64,000 nucleotides of DNA from Octopus vulgaris (lineage: Eukaryota), in assembly GCA_951406725.2 (NCBI GenBank), contig OX597815.1, positions 97,216,001 to 97,280,000 on the forward strand. The letters are read 5' to 3'. Within the stretch, counting starts at the first letter, position 1. Each line of letters begins with the position of its first letter. The notes beneath the pieces were generated by a model. That model was not told the DNA's origin. It saw nothing but the letters and a program-made list of their open reading frames with translations, and made no database searches. Positions 6,899 through 56,675 of the stretch are shown here, piece by piece. Position numbers and translations under genes: made by a program.

Positions 6899-8164
6899 AC
6901 GAGATATTTTCAAAATGTTCGCGGACTAGTTATGCTTAATACAGAACTAACTTACTTACCTAAGTTTTCACATCATCTCCTTCGAAATACTCAACTTGCT
7001 CAGCCAAACACCGGTCTCAACATTCCTGCAAATCCGGCGTGGATGTCGTTTTCCCAATAAGTGAGTTGAGGACTTTTTATGATTCGCTCTGGATCTCGAC
7101 AGCTGTCTTAAAACGACGACCTTTGAGCAGCATTTTCATCTTGAGCAACAGATAGAACTCCACAGGTGCGGAAACGATGCGATGTCGTTTTTGTCGAAAA
7201 TCTCACGGCTAAGAAGAGCTCGGTAACAGGATGCATTGTAGTCGTGGAGAATCAAATTCTTCGCGCTTTACAGATCCGGTCACTCCCTCCGAAATTCTTC
7301 CCTCAAAAGCTTCAAAACGTCACAGTAGAACTCTCGATTGGTGGTCAGGATCTGGGGGTGAATTCTCGATGTACAAAAGCACGGATGCCGAAAAGAAAAA
7401 GATGAGCTCGCTCTTGATTGAGCTGCGGCTTTGTCGTGCAATTTTCGGTCTTGAAGATGAAAGGCTCTTGCCTTTTGACGACTGCTGCTTCGTTTTAGTG
7501 TCGTAACCGTAGACACAATACTCGTCACAATTGATGCTTCTCGGTAAGAAGGATGGATCATCAGCGCCACGCTGTCCGCGTTTGCGCGTTCTTTCAGCAG
7601 ACAAAGGCCAAACTTTGGCAGAGACACGCCGCATATTCAAATTAGACGTCAGGATTGCCTGCACAGATCCATACGATGAACGGATGACATCAGCAATGTT
7701 GTTAATTGCCCCCCGACAATTCTCATACACAAGCTGATTACGTTTCTCCACATTTCCCTGGTTGACGCTTGTGGAAGATCTTGCAGACCGCTCATCGTCT
7801 TCCAGAAACGTTCTTCCGCTTTTAAAACGCCTGCGCCACTCGAAATGTTGCATACGACTCATTGCCTCGCCACTGTATTCTTGCCGAATCAGACTCAATA
7901 TTTCTGTAGCAGATTTACTAAGTTTAACGGAAAATTGTACGTTGGCTCTTTGTTCTAATTCCCTGTCTATGACGAAATCGCAGACTACTGCATACACGTG
8001 ATCACAAAATAGAAATTTCACAACATGGGAAGTAAACAAAGCGATGTCACTCGGTACACTGCCTTATTAAGGTCACTACTAGATCTTCTTGCACACGCAA
8101 TAGCTTTCTGTCATCTGTTGGTACGCAAAAGAACTAGTCCTAGAACTTATTGATAACACCTTAT
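6899..8164 (-). mobile_element. Full-length but inactivated mariner (Tc1/mariner) DNA transposon, ~1.27 kb
   Basis: Degenerate TIRs: acgagatattttcaaaatgttcgcggactagtt (6899-6931) versus the reverse complement of 8132-8164. Minus-strand transposase motifs include EQRANVQFSVKLSKSATE, FEWRRRFKSGRTFLEDDERS, RRVSAK, DEYCVYGYDTKTKQQSS and NREFYCDVLKLLRE, with frameshifts and stops. Confidence 0.88.
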
Positions 8165-9723: not shown

Positions 9724-9759
9724 TAGAGAAAGAGAGAGAGAGTGAGTGAGAGAGAGAGA

Positions 9760-12660
9760 GGCCTACCTAAGGGTCAACGTAGAGAATCTGGTGTTGGGTT
9801 TCCTCTCAAAAATACATTAGTATCCTCCAATGCAGAGCTTCCAAGTGGTATATCTGAAGAGATTATGTCATGCTGTATTAAACTGACAAAAGGTAGGTTT
9901 CTTACCGTTGTCAGTATTTATGCACCAACAATGTCCCATTCTAATGAAAATGTAGGACAGTTTTATGATGATCTAGCACTTATGTGATGATTGGGGAAAG
10001 TACCAATTTCTGACAAGCTAGACATATTAGGAGATTTCAATGTAAGAGTTGGAAAGGACTATGTTTCATGGCCTGTTTTAGGTCGACATGGGATTGGTAA
10101 ATGTAATAAAGATGGAATAGGTATTTTGATGTTTTGTACTGAGAATATTGTGGGTGTCACCAACACTCAGTTAAGGTAGAAAAATAAATATAAAACCACC
10201 TGGATGCACACAAGATCTAAGCACTGGCATCTCATATATTATATTCTGATCAAAAAACGTCATATGGGAGGGTCAGAGAGAGACTGATTTCATCTAGTGT
10301 GTGGGAAAATAGATTTTTCAATAATGCCTAACAATCGAGTCTGGTCCTAAGGTACCCAAAAAGTTAAATGTTGTAAAAATTATCGGGCAACTTGCAAAGA
10401 TTCCATGATGCTATAGAAAGTAACAATCTTGACCCAAATAATCTATGGGAAGATTTCAAAACAAAAGTATTTCTGCCTTGAAATATGACGGTGACAAAAT
10501 GTTTGAACTCTTGAATATCTTAATTTTCCACTGTTGGAGAACTGAGAAAATGCCTGAAGACTGGATTGATGCCATTTTAGTCTCCTTGTATAAATCGGGG
10601 TCAAAGGATCTGTGTGGTAATTTTCGTGGCATTTTGCTTTTGTCTGTGGTGGGATAGGTATTTGCCCGAAATTTGTTAGAACGTTTAAATAGCTTCATAG
10701 TTCCAAATATAGTGTTTGAGTCTCAGTGTGGTTTTCGTTCCTCCAGCTGATTGTATCTTTACTGTCAGAGAATTAGAAGAAAAGTGCATTGAACAGAATA
10801 ATACTCTCTACCACTGCGTTGTTGATTTGAGCAAAGCATTCGATACTGTTAATAGAAATGCGCTATGACTAATTCTAACGAAACTAGATCGCCCAGAAAA
10901 ATTTGTAAAAATGATCGGGGCTTTGCATCAAGGTATGGTAGCTAGAGTAAACTGTCGTGTTAGGATCCCTGAAACTTTTGCCGAAGAAAATGGAGTAAAG
11001 CAAGGAGACCTTGATGCACCCACCCTCTTTGCAATATATTGGGTTGTCCGGAAAGTTCTTACCGATTTTTAAAAGCAAGGAAAAAGGTCATTACATTTTT
11101 AATTAACCAATATGAACCATATGAACCATGTTGCACAATGCGTCTCCATCTTTTCGTTAATTTAAAAATAACCTCTTCCCAGAATTGAGGTGGTTCCATG
11201 GCAAATAATTCAGCAAGGTATCTTTTTTACGTTATCCAAGGAATTGAAAATTTTACCATTAAGACTATTCTGCAGAGACCTGAATAAATGGGAAATCCGA
11301 AGGAGCAATATCTGGTGAATATGGAGGGTGGGAAAACACATCTCAGCCGAGCTGCAGCATTTTTTGTCTGGTTCCCAAAGCATGAATTGCAGAAAATGAA
11401 TTTTCTTATTTTCTATTTTAAAGGGTTACAGAATTAACATAGGTTATAGGAACATAAACCTTCTTCCACGAAAAGTTAGCTTAAACTGTGCGCTAAATGG
11501 AGGTGTAGTCAAATCCTATTTTATGGACTCAACCATGTTCTAAAATAAGCCGAAAGCTAATCTACTATAAATCGGCACGAACTTTCCGAACAACCCAAAA
11601 CTTTCTTCTTGTGTTGTCATGTGCTTTTCAAAACTCCGAGGAGGTTATTTACATAACATATCGAACAGCCTGAAATTCAAAACGAAGATTTTTACTTTAC
11701 TCATTAGAAAACTTTTGTACGCTGACGATTGCGATCTTGTCAGTCATTCTGAAACAGTTCTGCAATCTCTTGTATCTGCATTTGACTCGGCTTGTGATGA
11801 TTTTGGCTTCATCATCAACTTGAAAAAAAAAACAGTTGTATTGCACCAACCTGCGTTTGGTGCTGTTTGTAACCTCACGAAAATTTTTGTTAAGTGTATG
11901 TTACGTGAGGTTGTCGATTCATTCGACTATCTTGGAATCTCTGTTCAAAATTATAGAAATATCGATACAGAAATTCAAAGGGCAGCAAAAGCATTCAATG
12001 GCTTGGAGTCACGCGTTTGGTGCCAGCGACATATAAATAAGAATACTAGGCTAGCTCTTTACAAATCATTTGTCTTACCATTCCTGTTGTATTGCTGTGA
12101 AACATGGACTTGTTATGAAAGGTATTTTAAAGTGTTAGGACAATTCCACAAACAATGCCTTCATCGCATTTTAAAAATAAAATGGATTTCTTTTACTCCA
12201 AATACAGATGTCCTTGCATCTGCATGCATCACCTCAATGCTATGATTTTTAGGAACCAAATAAGATGGCCGATGAACGCATGCCGAAACAGCTGTTTTAT
12301 GGTGAGCGTGCAGAGGGGAAACACTATCGACGTAAAGCTAAAAAAAGGTTTTAGATGGCATAAAGTCACTTGGACTGCATCCAAAAACATAGAAACCTTT
12401 GCTTCGAATCGTGTTGGATGGCGAACAAAAGTGTGGAGTGGAGCGAAACCATTTGAAGAGGCCAGGATAACGCAAATAAGATTCAAAGGAGATCTAAGGA
12501 AGAACGTTACGATCGAGAAGATGAATGACAATGACCTTTTTGTGTGCACAGTTTGTGATAGATCATGCCTGTATTTTGCTGGGCTCAAATCTCATCTGCG
12601 AACCCATAGAAAACCAAACTCCACCAACCAGGTGGTCAAACTCTGCATAAGGAGTAGACA
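9760..12660 (+). mobile_element. Degenerate RTE-clade (BovB-like) LINE: APE endonuclease, reverse transcriptase and C-terminal C2H2 finger; internally deleted and interrupted by a mariner
   Basis: Endonuclease motifs RRESGVGF, VSIYAPT, LGDFNVRVG and GRHGIGKCN. RT motifs CGNFRGILLLSVVG, SQCGFR, DLSKAFD, GVKQG and LLYADD (YADD at 11718-11729). C-terminal CTVCDRSC...SHLRTH. Many stops and frameshifts. Confidence 0.88.
11039..11598 (-). mobile_element. Internally deleted non-autonomous mariner nested in the RTE reverse transcriptase
   Basis: TIRs ttgggttgtccggaaagttcttaccgattt and aaatcggcacgaactttccgaacaacccaa. TA target at 11037-11038; the right-hand copy reads AA. Minus-strand HPPYSPDIAPSDF at 11293-11330. 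Removing the insert restores the RT reading LFAIY|FLLVL. Confidence 0.88.
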
Positions 12661-12669
12661 ACCACCCCA

Positions 12670-12704
<35 letters not shown>

Positions 12705-30159: not shown

Positions 30160-30940
30160 ATTTGCAAGATATTTCAAATCCCACAAATTCATCAAGACCT
30201 AATGTAAAATTAGTATACGTGACCTCTCACAATTTACAATATCACATACACAAACTAAATGACACAAAACTAAATAGAAGAACACTAGAGGGGAAATACG
30301 AAGAATTCGAAGCTAATAACGCTATAAACAACGGTGAAATCGTTGGAAACAGGAATAATAAAAGCTCGTCTATAGCAAAAACGGACCCAAACAATCACAC
30401 AATGAAAGGTACAATCTATGCATAAATTTTTTTTAAATGAGTACAAGATTACAGGAGGGAAAAGAAATAGGATCACCAATACTATCTCCACAAGCAGAAC
30501 AGAAACATCGACATAATTTATAACTGCAGACGAAAAGAGGAATGCAGTTTTAACGAGAACTGCATGATAAGGAATGTACAAATGTAAGGTGAAGACGGGT
30601 ACACAGAAATACGTGTATATTAGTGACACCGATGGCACCATGAAAAGTCGTCTGCATAACCATCTCTCATCATTTTCAAATATAAATAAAAGACCTTTCA
30701 CATCTCTACCAAACATCGCAGAAGTGAGTGGATCATACGACCCACTGGTCCATTATAAACAATGCTACACTATTTAACGGAACATCACGGGTATGCATCC
30801 TATGCCAAGAAGAATCTCTGAAAATCATCACAACCTGGGAAAACGTGGTAACTAGGCAATCTGAGGTGATTGTATCATATAAACATAAGATCAAAACATC
30901 ATTTCTGAAATTTGATAAAAAATTTCAAACAAAATAGCAC
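30160..30940 (+). mobile_element. Penelope-like element remnant (post-RT linker and GIY-YIG endonuclease)
   Basis: RPNVKLVYVTSHNL, MYKCKVKTGTQKYVYISDTDGTMKSRLHNHLSSF, and WSIINNA...SRVCILCQEESLKII...RQSEVIVSYKH resemble degenerate PLE GIY-YIG C-termini. Confidence 0.75.
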
Positions 30941-36808: not shown

Positions 36809-37066
36809 TATGTCAACAAATTAAAAAAGGTGTTGCCGCGATTTTTGGACCAATATCTACTGTATCTGCTGCACACGTGCAATCAATATGTGGATCACTT
36901 CAAATTCCGAACTTACACACAGAATGGGATTCGAGGGATGTAAATGTCAGGAGTTTTTTCGCCATCAACATTTACCCCCACTACCAGACAATGGGAAGAG
37001 CTTACCTAGATCTTATCCGGTACTGGGGTTGGAGGAAGTTTGCAGTTTTATATGAAGATAATGACG
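36809..37066 (+). CDS. GRIK2-like: Internal coding exon (258 bp, phase 1-1) of a kainate-type ionotropic glutamate receptor, amino-terminal (LIVBP-like/ANF receptor) domain
   Basis: Translation (V)CQQIKKGVAAIFGPISTVSAAHVQSICGSLQIPNLHTEWD...FAINIYPHYQTMGRAYLDLIRYWGWRKFAVLYEDND(G) matches kainate-receptor ATD motifs (GVAAIFGP, VQSIC...PH, YP, DL...W). Acceptor is ttttcaattttcatttcAG ending at 36808; donor is GTAAGT at 37067. Confidence 0.93.
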
Positions 37067-40000
37067 GTAAGTAACAATTGATTTAGTTTCATTGAGTTTA
37101 TCATTTATCTGGAACAGTAAATAAGTACAGGAACAGTAAATAGCTTCGTTTCTGTCTATTTTTGTTTCGATAAGATTTATAAATAATAAGAATAAGCATA
37201 TGTTTGAGGGTGGGTGGCCTGTTATTTCAGGAGTTGGATGTTTCTTGTAGGATCATGAGGTTGATTCCTTGACCAGAAAATGCCCTATGTCACACAAGGA
37301 AACACTTCACGGTGTTTCAATCTACTTTATTAAAAATGTGTACCAGCCGAATGCTATTTGAACCCCAACGTCTTCTAGGTGTTATGTCAGATGTCGAGAC
37401 AAAATGGTGTCTATATATACTCGTTACAATATATACATCTATAATGATTAGAGAAAACATAGTACATAATATGAAGCCCTTCTCGTTTGCGAGTGACGAC
37501 TATGGTTAATGGTAAACTCGATATTTGGAAATCATTATTTAATGTAAATCGTGAAGTTTTCAAGTATATGACACAGAGGAAATAGTTTGTCAATTAATAT
37601 GGATTCTAATTATTGCAATAGGAAACTTTGAAATACAACATAGTAATTCGTTAGCAACACGTCTGATAATTAATAGATTTTATTTTCGTAATTAAAATAT
37701 TCTATTTGTTATTTTAGTAACGCAATGTGCATTATCTAAGATATTGAATCCTAATTAAATTGCTAAATTATTTCGTTCAGTTATTGATATTTATGTTTAG
37801 CATATATGAAATAGCTTTTGCTTCAGTTTGGATTCGTTTATTCTGCATTTGAAATATAACACAACAGTATATACAATTTCTTTAAAACGTATAATTTATA
37901 TTATTTGTGTTATTAGACTTAACATCTTCAGTAACAGGTCGTATAATCTATAGCATTTGTCATACAATTAATCACGTAGACTTCTACATAGGTATATAAT
38001 GTAGGATTCTTGTCCAGCACGTGAAGAAATACCACTGAATAAGTGAAACGTTTTCACGCTACAGATCTTTTACTTCCTTTCAATTATTCTCTTTTGCACA
38101 AGCTGTTTCAACAGCAGAATTGATCATTTTTTACTAAGAGTTACGATGCCTTCCAGCCATCTTTGTTTTAGTAATCCTCAAACACAATTCTGAACTAATT
38201 ATCCGTTATTTGTATGCGCTTTCTTTCTGCAATCTTCAAACTGGATAGTCAATCATCTCGCATTTTCTTTTGAATTGTTGTTTATATTGTTTGATCTATT
38301 CAATTTGTTACTCCCAGGGTAAAATATTACAAAAAGTGAAGGTAAGATAAAAGATAAACTTGTGCATCGAATTACACAAAAGAAAGCAATTCTCTGAGAT
38401 AGCTCTTGGTGTTTAGTATTTTATATCCAATATAAACTCGCTGTGCATTGTTACAATATCTATTGGAAGTAAGCACATGAAAAGCAAGCTGCAAAGTGGA
38501 TCGTGCTAGCTATCGAAAACATACCTTAATTATTCTTTGCTCAATAACATGGTGAAAACAATCTTTTAAATACAAGATATTTCGAATAGCATTCTTGCTT
38601 TGAACTAGTTTCTATTGTGACCTCTGAAATGACAATAACGTAACGTTGGGAAAATATCAATGGGTGTTTATATATAATGTACTGATAATAGAATGCATTT
38701 GACATAAACTAAACTGCAGCCTTCTGTGTTTATCAACTCGGTAGTATTTTACATTTGTTTGGAATAATCTCCACGTAAATATTCACTGCGACAAACAAAA
38801 AGACGACTGAAAATAATTTGTTTAAGCTTCTGAATGTTCTAACCGTAATTGAAGCGGAGAATAAATGTGCAAATTAGCTCCTGAATGATTTCTTAATTCA
38901 GCAGTAGAAGTAAAAAAAGAAAGAAAAAAAAAGATTTTCATGAAACTGGCATTAATGTTTATATATAGCAGCATTCGTCTAATTTGTTGGCATCAATTGT
39001 TGAATATTGAATTCAATGACATTCAATGTATATTGCAGTAAATTACGAGAAATTTTCTGCTGGTTATTCCAAACCATGTTGAATCAAATAACTTATTAAC
39101 ATTCTTCTATACCCATCTGTTGCTGAAGTCTGAGACAATTACATGAAGTCCTTCTTCATAATTAGGTTTGAAATGAAGCTAACATGCTATATTGATGCGT
39201 TGATGTTCCTGGTTTAATCTGCGTCGAATTAGTATACGAGATGACTCGTAGTTATCGCTGCATTATTTCCCTGAAATAATGTGAAATACCATGTATTTAA
39301 CAAAATTATTATCAGTGCTTACTTTTCTTCGCCACAGTAAATGTTTGCATGAAAGTCGTTTCAAATTGTTTCAGAGTGAAGGAAAAACCTCCGAATTGTT
39401 GAATAGAAATATTTGCAATTGATTTTGTATACCCTTCATTTTATAATTAGTTCATTACATAGGGAATCATTTATTGATGTTTTCCTGCCGTTGGGTTATT
39501 GGCATTCCATCGACTATTTATGACTCTTTCAGGGATATTGGAATTGAAAGGAAAGTGTAAAACTTACAAGGGAAAACTGAATGTAGAACATCCATAACCC
39601 AGTAAAATTTGTTTTATCTATAATACTCCTACGCAATGTGTACTCCAACACTTTAAAAAGCATTTGTTTTAATAAATTAAACATAACTACATGGGCATAT
39701 CTTAATAACACCATTTTTCCGGACACTTAGATGCACTTTCTGCACATTCTCATACTGTACATTCTCAAGTGTACTTTTGGATTATTTCGGAAGAAACGAT
39801 ACCTACTCTTCCCGTTTCACCCTCTCCCTCTATCTACCTATTTACCTATCCATCTATCTAGCAATCTCTCTAACATCTACATATCTCCTTTCACATCTCT
39901 CTCTCCATCTCCCTTCATATATATACGCACACTCGCAGAGACATATGCATATTCAATTGGTCCCTGAATGCAAATAATTCCTCAAATGCTTACTCAAAAA

Positions 40001-54970: not shown

Positions 54971-55481
54971 ACTGAAAAATAAAAGCAAATACATTACAAA
55001 TACACACAAACACACATTCGTGCATTTGTACGCAGCAAACAGAACTGCACACGTATTTGCATACACAAACACAAGCACACGTACTCTCTCTCTCTCTATC
55101 TCTCTCTTTCACAGGCCTTGCTTCTTTCAGCTTCCAAATCCCTTCAAAGGCCTACCAGGCACCAAATCGCCACTAGCTTCTTGTCCAACCATTCAGTACA
55201 AAAAAGTTAATTTCTAATACATTTGGTATCACCGAAGTGGCAATATCATTTCTAACAACAGCATGTGAGTCCTTAGCGAATAGCAGCCCATTATTCAATA
55301 ACTATATGGTACTTGTTATATTTTTCCATTCAGTGATCTAAGATTCAAGTAGATGGGTTTCTGTAAGAAGCCTGCGACACCCTTCGTCGCATGGAGCCGA
55401 ATCAAACTTTTTAAACTATAATATATGTAACTCTTTTACTAAAAGAGTTGAGTGACCATTTACCTGCGTTTGACCACCGAC

Positions 55482-55534
<53 letters not shown>

Positions 55535-55616
55535 GGTCCCGGGTTGAGTCGGGGTTAACCACAGTAAATAAGGTACTCAATACATAGCAGAGTAAATTAA
55601 TTTATTTTATAGAAGG

Positions 55617-55667
55617 AGCTTCTACAGGACTAGAACTGTTTCATTCAAAAGAAATCATCAGGAAGCT
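55617..55667 (-). ncRNA. Type I hammerhead ribozyme motif, mirror copy in the palindrome, intact core
   Basis: Reverse complement reads agcttc-CTGATGA-tttcttttgaat-GAAA-CAGttctagtcCTG-TA-gaagct. Confidence 0.8.
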
Positions 55668-55714
55668 TCCTGATGATTTCATTTGAATGAAACAGTTCTA
55701 GTCCTGTAGAAGCT
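55664..55714 (+). ncRNA. Type I hammerhead ribozyme motif with intact core
   Basis: agcttc-CTGATGA-t-ttc(attt)gaa-t-GAAA-CAG(ttctagtc)CTG-TA^gaagct. Stem I is agcttc/gaagct (6 bp), stem III is CAG/CTG, the triplet is GUA, and cleavage is predicted after 55708. Confidence 0.8.
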
Positions 55715-55729
55715 CCTTCTATAAAATAA

Positions 55730-55769
<40 letters not shown>

Positions 55770-56027
55770 TGAATAAGGGTAGAAATTGATATTAATCAAT
55801 AACAACCAGTGGCCTATCATATTAAAAAAATCCGAAGATTAAAATATTTTTCACATACAAAATTTAAAGGACTGACCACTAAAAGTGGACACACAATATG
55901 ACAGATATAGACGTCATAATCGCTATTTTCCACGAAGAAAGTGTTCTCAAGAAAAATACTCAGCACGAAACCAAAGTGTAAAAAATAATCAAGACAAATG
56001 AAAGTATACAAAATAAAAAACGATGAC

Positions 56028-56102
56028 CTATGTACTAATTAGTTTCACTTGTTAATATTCACGTATATGTATACGCGAAAATCTGCAAGATCATCAGCAT
56101 AG
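56028..56102 (-). ncRNA. Type I minimal (PLE-type) hammerhead ribozyme with extended stem II
   Basis: Reverse complement reads ctatg-CTGATGA-tcttg...caagt-GAAAC-taatta-GTA-catag. Stem I ctatg/catag is perfect and loop III (TAATTA) is palindromic. Confidence 0.8.
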
Positions 56103-56376
56103 TCTGTCGGATTTTTTTAATATGCTAGGCCACTGGTTTTAATCGATTAATATCAATTTCTACCCTTATTCAATTTTAAATAATAAAAAAAATGTTCTCT
56201 AAAGGTAAATTGAATGCTGCAATTTATTAACTGCAGAGTAGATTTTCGATCTCAGCGCGCCAAAATGAAGGCATTTGAAAGATACACATAATTATGATTT
56301 GTTGAACTCTATGCATGTGGGATTCCGGTCATGCGTTATGTATCTGGTTCTGGAAATTATGTTTGTAAACGACAGA

Positions 56377-56451
56377 CTGTGCTGATGATCTTGCAGATTT
56401 TCGCGTATATATATACGTGAATATTAACAAGTGAAGCTAATTAGTACATAG
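56377..56451 (+). ncRNA. Inverted copy of the 56028-56102 hammerhead with a core mutation (GAAA>GAAG)
   Basis: ctgtg-CTGATGA-tcttg...caagt-GAAGC-taatta-GTA-catag. Confidence 0.65.
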
Positions 56452-56675
56452 GTAATCGTTTTTTATTTCCTATATTTTCATTTGTCTTGATTATTTTTTA
56501 CACTTTGGTTTTGTGCTGAGTTTTTTCTTGAGAACACATTCTTCGTGGAAAATAGCGATTTTGACGTCTATGTCTAGCATATTGAGTGTCCACTTTTAGT
56601 GGTCAGTCCTTTAAATTCTGTATGCAAAAAATATATATAAATATATATATATACATGCATGCATACATACATACG

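Follow-up and report, generated by a model that had tools for sequence, protein, structure and literature searches.

A hammerhead-bearing palindrome in the Octopus vulgaris genome: a head-to-head insertion of a Penelope-like element, probably made from two end-joined cDNAs

A 64,000-nucleotide stretch of the Octopus vulgaris genome (assembly GCA_951406725.2, contig OX597815.1, positions 97,216,001 to 97,280,000 of the forward strand; hereafter the window, with positions counted from its first letter) carries at 55600-55731 a palindrome with a hammerhead ribozyme motif on each strand. Is this pair of motifs a switch within a host gene, or is it the trace of a mobile element, and if so, how was it formed? 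The initial annotation of the locus favoured self-cleavage gated by RNA conformation, within an intron of a glutamate receptor gene, and gave as its own alternative a by-product of reverse transcription of a Penelope-like element (PLE); it is this alternative that the family, the parent element and the structure of the copies support.

The palindrome comprises two 66-bp arms (55600-55665 and 55666-55731) with zero spacer, and the sole mismatch in its 132 bp, A55650 versus A55681, lies in hammerhead loop II, exactly as first described. A repeat finder stretches it to 55593-55738 at 96%, and its folding z-score of -21.8, with none of 200 shuffled sequences equally stable, is far above chance. 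A genome search for a recurrent palindromic form, as the initial annotation had proposed, identified at least 645 loci with the exact spacerless centre, and contigs from the public runs X3 and X10 span the centre. These contigs are evidence at the level of the family; in the four runs examined, out of 24, contigs over the unique left flank of the window copy (55400-55535) were absent. At the family level an assembly fold-back artefact is thereby rejected, and a one-off assembly artefact as the source of the palindrome is very unlikely.

The palindrome is the core of a larger unit of 204 bp (55532-55735), flanked by (TA)n on each side. With the A of AGCTTCC numbered +1, its parts and its context are as follows (basis in brackets):

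55485-55531, unstranded: (TA)n target, tail side (sequence)
55532-55667, minus strand: tail-bearing arm, element +1 to +136, with hammerhead, AT-rich linker and tail (pLTR-end identity, recurrent tail end)
55532-55599, minus strand: PLE tail, +69 to +136, 68 nt, on one arm only (comparison with full-length copies)
55617-55667, minus strand: type I hammerhead motif with UUUU in loop II; cleavage predicted between 55623 and 55622 (sequence)
55664-55667, unstranded: AGCT dyad common to both arms, forming the junction; putative first four bases of the element RNA (sequence and end positions)
55664-55714, plus strand: type I hammerhead motif with AUUU in loop II; cleavage predicted after 55708; same sense as the host gene (sequence; read-through block by calculation)
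55664-55734, plus strand: inverted arm lacking the tail, from +1 to about +68 and followed by AAA (recurrent arm ends)
55735-55763, unstranded: (TA)n target, inverted-arm side (sequence)
about 36811-37071, plus strand: context, coding stretch for the amino-terminal domain of a kainate-type ionotropic glutamate receptor (Pfam ANF_receptor, E 1e-16)

Over its first 130 nt the tail-bearing arm shows no difference from the end of the pLTR in longer copies with an upstream TATA box (L063/L070, L174), and in full-length copies the tail runs on into the 5' UTR and the ORF. The tail end GGACCTAC is present in 81 of 98 sampled ends (for the sample see below), and tail-less arms across the sample end at or inside TATAAAATAAAT / TATATAATAAAT. 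Among 449 genome candidates for the 204-bp unit, all 40 that were scored are full length with 99-100% identity; 28 of 30 loci were anchored, at simple-repeat sites that are nearly all (TA)n, with TA-type runs on the tail side in 28/28 and on the other side in 27/28. Any target-site duplication of the window copy is masked by the (TA)n at both sides. The hammerhead 3' half occurs 5,661 times in the genome and the tail 3,456 times, and the family is present in runs under three species labels. The window copy is young, within 1 nt of many other copies; having neither promoter nor ORF it is likely a dead end, and taken singly it is ordinary.

Other repeats are present in the window. An unrelated high-copy repeat (55768-56634) directly adjoins the element and has inverted arms of 157 bp (94%), 113 bp (92%) and 68 bp (94%), and decayed GIY-YIG-like coding fragments at 30571-30934 look, by eye, like the C-terminal end of a PLE of Hydra type from a different family. 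We take 7323-8063 (minus strand) to be broken mariner-like transposase fragments and 9727-12700 (plus strand) to be broken LINE-like endonuclease/RT fragments.

Which element gave rise to the insertion? An intact parent (L123) is organised as pLTR-tail-5'UTR-ORF-3'UTR-pLTR-tail, with an ORF of 713 aa; in non-palindromic copies the hammerhead stands at the end of a pLTR of approximately 270 bp. The ORF represents an RT with a C-terminal GIY-YIG domain (YRDD and LVY...YIG are present); Pfam gave no RT or GIY-YIG match for the L123 protein, and its homologues at about 40% identity have GIY-YIG or RVT_1 matches. The family has the features of EN+ PLEs, i.e. pLTRs in tandem, or inverted with a one-sided tail, and a hammerhead in the pLTR. 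Moreover, the protein has the motifs RWR, DKT, CNCPDKTTC, one Cys before YIG and CDLC..E..N..CMH, and no CCHH, to be compared with the Hydra-clade diagnostics RWK, DKT, a CxCx5C linker, no CCHH, and CxxC plus CxH around E and N (PMC8557442); by eye, the ORF and published Hydra ORFs are alike motif by motif, and the Hydra-clade preference for (TA)n is matched. On these motifs and this likeness we classify the parent as a Hydra-type EN+ PLE; both L123 and the pLTR-end identity agree with the Penelope-like origin suggested at the outset.

The resemblance to the Hydra-clade EN+ PLEs of Craig et al. 2021 (PMC8557442; e.g. Hydra-1_Obim and Penelope-1_NV) thus covers the RT plus GIY-YIG ORF, the pLTR hammerhead, the (TA)n targets and an inverted 5'-truncated copy with a one-sided tail. 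It is nevertheless a separate family from that set, with a hammerhead unlike any of those compared in File S2, a tail of about 68 nt versus 30-40, and a unit measuring about 4.8 kb whose 3' UTR, of 2.2 kb, is rich in microsatellites, as against a Hydra-clade unit under approximately 3 kb. In L123 (4910-7150) and related long copies the 3' UTR is about 2.2-3 kb, (TA)/(CA)-rich and far longer than in published Hydra elements.

Specifically, the plus-strand hammerhead motif is built from AGCTTC (55664-69), CTGATGA (55670-76), GAAA (55689-92), CAG/CTG (55693-95/55704-06), GTA with the cut after 55708, and GAAGCT (55709-14). Both strands have CUGAUGA and GAAA, the triplet GUA, a stem I of 6 bp and a stem III made of CAG/CUG, and each strand has the type I signature of CUGANGA, GAAA, an NUH triplet and three stems. 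Two intact ribozymes had been claimed: the core motifs stand on each strand, but stem II is weak, being only 3 bp (UUC/GAA) closed by U.U and having no G10.1-C11.1 pair, with a computed probability of 0.02-0.17 in isolated arms. The search with hammerhead covariance models that had been suggested gave no hammerhead match at either threshold; in Rfam no family reached its gathering score anywhere in the window, and hammerhead families were absent among the 63 weak matches at 55400-55900. Weak miRNA matches in Rfam were rejected, as they merely mirror a long hairpin.

Among published Hydra-clade hammerheads (PMC8557442 File S2) the CTGATGAT...TGAA core is common, as in the window motif, U.U closure of stem II is found in many motifs too, and two have the same ACAG/CTGT-A stem III. 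The common variation in 359 arms (from loci partly selected by motif) sits at N7, in loop II and at one loop III base, where the change lengthens the loop's CUAG palindrome; a subfamily variant at element position +34 (e.g. L279, L285 and L292), present in 34 of the 359 arms, converts loop III CTAG to ACTAGT and would strengthen a dimer helix. This pattern fits a maintained ribozyme that may act as a dimer. A dimeric mode has been proposed for PLE hammerheads (PMC4209133), and the metazoan ones assayed so far cleave poorly as monomers or depend on protein (PMC4209133; PMC11167929). A class of 29 loci (L217-L226 among them) consists of single hammerheads with a long perfect stem I, arising via priming or deletion between the two copies of AGCTTC; folding is open to these, in contrast to the full palindrome, and they might be able to cleave in monomeric form.

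To determine where insertions stop, we took the first 100 tail matches on contig C1 (3,456 in the genome), dropped two duplicate flanks and scored 98; this sample is one stretch of one contig, and its selection by exact 31-mers favours young copies. Taking whichever arm extended furthest 5', the end fell at -1 to +1 in 38 of the 98 (36 once L091 and L109, which run into parent variants, are removed), +2 to +5 in 11, +6 to +43 in 18, -149 to -2 in nine, +44 to +48 in none and beyond +48 in two, and 20 extended over the whole pLTR or longer. No pile-up at the hammerhead cut site was detected in this tail-anchored sample (0/98). A minor class ending near the cut accounts for about 17 of the 27 distinct loci inspected out of 171 matches; here some templates may be cleaved, and TA/GAAG microhomology at that site explains these ends equally well.

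Position +1 is the first base of hammerhead stem I. Upstream of it, TATAAA starts at a distance of 29 nt in 98 of 100 parent-type copies having one (CATAAA variants uncounted), and this spacing is preserved across divergent spacers. At -1 the parents have T, C or A and not G, and the target joints read TAT-G-(+1) in 46 cases versus TAT-[A/C/T]-(+1) in 18 and ATAT-(+1) in 16, the background for G being 11-17% (11% after ATAT in the window). In addition, 442 matches have G at -1 without a preceding G, and for part of these microhomology offers an explanation. The window copy lacks the extra G. Reverse transcriptases are able to append C even where a cap is absent. For L1, an untemplated 5' G has been interpreted as the copied cap (PMC9341517). 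The end pile-up at +1, the TATAAA 29 nt upstream and the extra G without a parental template lead us to infer that +1 is likely the capped transcription start of uncleaved sense element RNA; since the cDNA reads past the cut site, its template would be uncut or religated. In D. virilis the internal promoter of Penelope lacks a TATA box (PMC2377424), and a TATA-driven start would differ from it. As to other origins of the +1 boundary, a splice acceptor was rejected because an upstream exon common to the junctions viewed was not seen, and a retrovirus-like transfer from cap to RNA 3' end is not supported, given that of seven copies with the tail joined into the 5' UTR one starts at +1 and six retain upstream pLTR.

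The two arms can be compared for reach and for sequence. The end lies near +68 in tail-less arms and at +136 in tail arms. Of 55 palindromes, 20 have a tail-less arm that extends further 5' than its partner, in 16 it is the tail arm that does so, the reach is equal in 17, and two have an upstream run. Some tail-less arms carry G at +1, whether standing alone (L293, L296) or attached to a stub of tail (L295, L299). G is present on both arms at 89 loci, many of which can be read as templated insertions, and 14 are without G. The loop II alleles of the arms at 292 loci are T/T in 181, A/A in 102 (by subtraction) and mixed in nine, with 135 mixed loci expected at random, and rare alleles are symmetric between arms. 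The arms thus nearly always share alleles, which points to one template or donor. The nine mixed loci (window 55650/55681, L031-L039) stand against about one estimated from a 1% arm-to-arm background, and two RNAs or templates, or else later mutation or a mutable site, could account for these, the window copy included.

Relevant to formation is the Poseidon PLE, for which in vitro both target strands are cut and extended, unprocessed RNA is used and reverse transcription starts at two internal sites flanking the tail (PMC11167929); the start site is alike between strands, and the joining step was not part of that work according to its main text. This match of start sites and strands, together with the arm reach and the tail-less arms' own G, favours two end-joined cDNAs, and we judge it reasonably probable that the unit is a head-to-head PLE insertion in (TA)n made from two such cDNAs on the capped, uncleaved RNA 5' end. 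Priming of the cDNAs would take place on the two opposite strands of the target, from a pair of internal start sites that flank the tail (near +136 and +68), so that the tail-bearing arm (55532-55667) would represent the cDNA from the distal site and the tail-less arm (55664-55734) the second, proximal one. Both would copy capped, uncleaved sense RNA and run off the cap, the extra G being the copied cap; their 3' ends would then anneal via AGCT, the best annealing point, or other microhomology, and be filled in. One RNA or one donor for both cDNAs is assumed, to satisfy the arm concordance. The main confounder is that later deletions at the palindrome centre could shorten either arm and so mimic part of the 20/16 split.

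At one locus (G000:C1:65712900-65713650; L263, L287-L289) there are two arms with a tail, and both carry G at +1. One of these continues to the 5' UTR and ORF and then joins a third arm, which is tail-less, starts G-(+1) and has the same orientation; this looks like a template jump from the cap to a truncated RNA.

A single cDNA on the same capped template could also yield a palindrome, if it ran off the cap, snapped back and self-primed its second strand, with centre deletions giving the variety. Arm concordance then needs no added assumption, most junctions have 1-4 nt of microhomology, and 29 loci are structured as expected from priming on the stem I mirror. A simple snap-back requires, however, that the tail arm reaches at least as far 5' as the other, and the 20 of 55 palindromes with a longer tail-less arm therefore argue against one tail-primed cDNA. 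These palindromes and the tail-less arms with their own G at +1 would both call for secondary events, the fixed tail-less end near +68 is left unexplained, and nine mixed-allele loci exceed the one or so estimated. We hold this route to be unlikely, the possible centre deletions being what keeps it in play.

The stop at +1 might instead stem from RNA or cDNA structure at the base of stem I, or from self-priming of an antisense transcript, rather than from a capped sense end. Indeed, +1 coincides exactly with the stem I base and the AGCT dyad, antisense self-priming is the published interpretation of head-to-head junction palindromes in Adineta Penelope elements (PMC3846280), and +1/+2 is also part of a YAG, with a D. 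virilis intron ending at helix I (PMC4209133). Such readings predict neither the extra G nor the TATA spacing across divergent spacers, there is no common exon-1 sequence ahead of +1 at the junctions viewed, and we consider them improbable.

Self-propagation of the 204-bp palindrome as a non-autonomous element, with a few masters being copied in full, is suggested by its fixed ends and by the 40 full-length copies with 99-100% identity; the TATA promoter is missing, however, the junction recurs per subfamily with long parents, one-off junction variants are many and long copies show equal tail asymmetry, which makes this highly improbable. Two classes of known element were also rejected. A non-LTR retrozyme needs a head-to-tail tandem with two same-strand hammerheads, and from the head-to-head window unit release of a monomer is impossible; the likeness to non-LTR retrozymes (bioRxiv 10.64898/2026.07.22.740005) consists in being short, non-coding and PLE-derived with a type I hammerhead. 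A MITE or TIR DNA transposon, which calls for symmetric terminal inverted repeats and a transposase partner, does not agree with a 68-nt tail on one side and a partner that is an RT element.

With regard to the host gene, the translation of 36811-37071 has kainate-type receptors as best PDB matches (E 1e-21), and channel-domain exons lie 385-425 kb downstream of the element on the same (plus) strand. With a kainate-type exon before it and channel-domain exons after it on one strand, the element is probably located in a glutamate receptor intron, and its plus-strand motif is sense to the gene, in line with the initial annotation. Per 0.44-Mb gene span, 0.1 perfect-centre or about 0.3 short fold-back copies are expected by chance. 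In a transcript of either strand the ribozyme emerges after its own antisense copy, and folding calculations for read-through RNA put the catalytic fold above the ensemble by 71 kcal/mol in the host sense and by 70 kcal/mol in the element sense. Any read-through RNA would accordingly hold both hammerheads shut within a hairpin of 66 bp, and on this calculation a conformational gate at the intronic site appears implausible. The construct proposed for assay as an isolated arm (55655-55731) is itself predicted to misfold, with a penalty of 11 kcal/mol, because 9 nt of the other arm are retained; 55664-55714, with a calculated 3.4 kcal/mol, is the better construct. Action of ADAR or Dicer on the hairpin is plausible by analogy with any intronic inverted repeat; in the contigs of X10, tentatively taken to be RNA, no A>G change of 5% or more came up, an outcome that is neutral as to editing. 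A host-adopted, gated ribozyme, for which the sense orientation and the probable intronic site speak, is scarcely credible given the calculated 71 kcal/mol barrier, a chance-expected position, a young copy at most 1 nt from many others, and the poor monomer cleavage or protein requirement of assayed metazoan PLE hammerheads (PMC4209133; PMC11167929).

Similar architectures have been described. The inverted pLTRs of Adineta vaga Penelope (Arkhipova et al. 2013, PMC3846280) have the same head-to-head arrangement, palindromic junction and one-arm tail, and a putative TATA box in the pLTR as in the window family; for those elements antisense self-priming was preferred and a sense origin left open, whereas here the end is likely the capped sense end, reached by either arm. 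Truncated PLE copies of Schistosoma (Cervera and de la Pena 2014, PMC4209133) likewise have two opposite-strand hammerheads. In Anolis Poseidon (Frangieh et al. 2024, PMC11167929) the tail is also followed by 5' UTR/ORF in full-length copies, and 5' truncation shortens the product in vitro; Poseidon belongs to a different clade, and the main text reports neither inverted structures from two cDNAs nor cap mapping. An octopus repeat-annotation paper (PMC13282606) lists active Penelope families, with hammerheads, palindromes and Hydra unmentioned in the parts drawn on here. About half of our sampled ends are stubs stopping 5 nt or less from +1, of which the portions of PMC8557442 used here give no account. 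The inverted pLTR with a one-sided tail is thus already known (PMC8557442); its mechanistic reading in terms of a capped end and two cDNAs was not found in the literature searched, where neither cap-terminated PLE stubs nor twin cDNA joining was described (subscription papers and several supplements being outside the coverage).

Finally, the interest lies in the population, the single window copy being ordinary and likely a record of insertion, not a host-gene switch. The origin of the inverted repeat and tail, sense versus antisense template and the role of the hammerhead are open questions for PLEs (PMC3846280, PMC8557442; PMC11167929). For PLEs in general, the balance tips slightly towards insertion by twin priming on capped sense RNA, with the one-sided tail and inverted pLTR representing two end-joined cDNAs. 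If so, about half of this family's insertions would be stubs of a "strong-stop"-like kind that ran off the cap, and the genome would hold thousands of natural 5' RACE products, with the hammerhead at the extreme 5' end of the RNA and mostly uncut when copied. Roughly 1,900 short hairpin-forming insertions (a rough figure, 55/98 scaled to 3,456) would add double-stranded RNA to introns. In the family population, evidence that can be counted in the genome speaks for a template that is sense, capped and mostly uncleaved, and for a pair of cDNAs at each insertion; as a young family with intact ORFs it supplies material for testing how PLEs insert.
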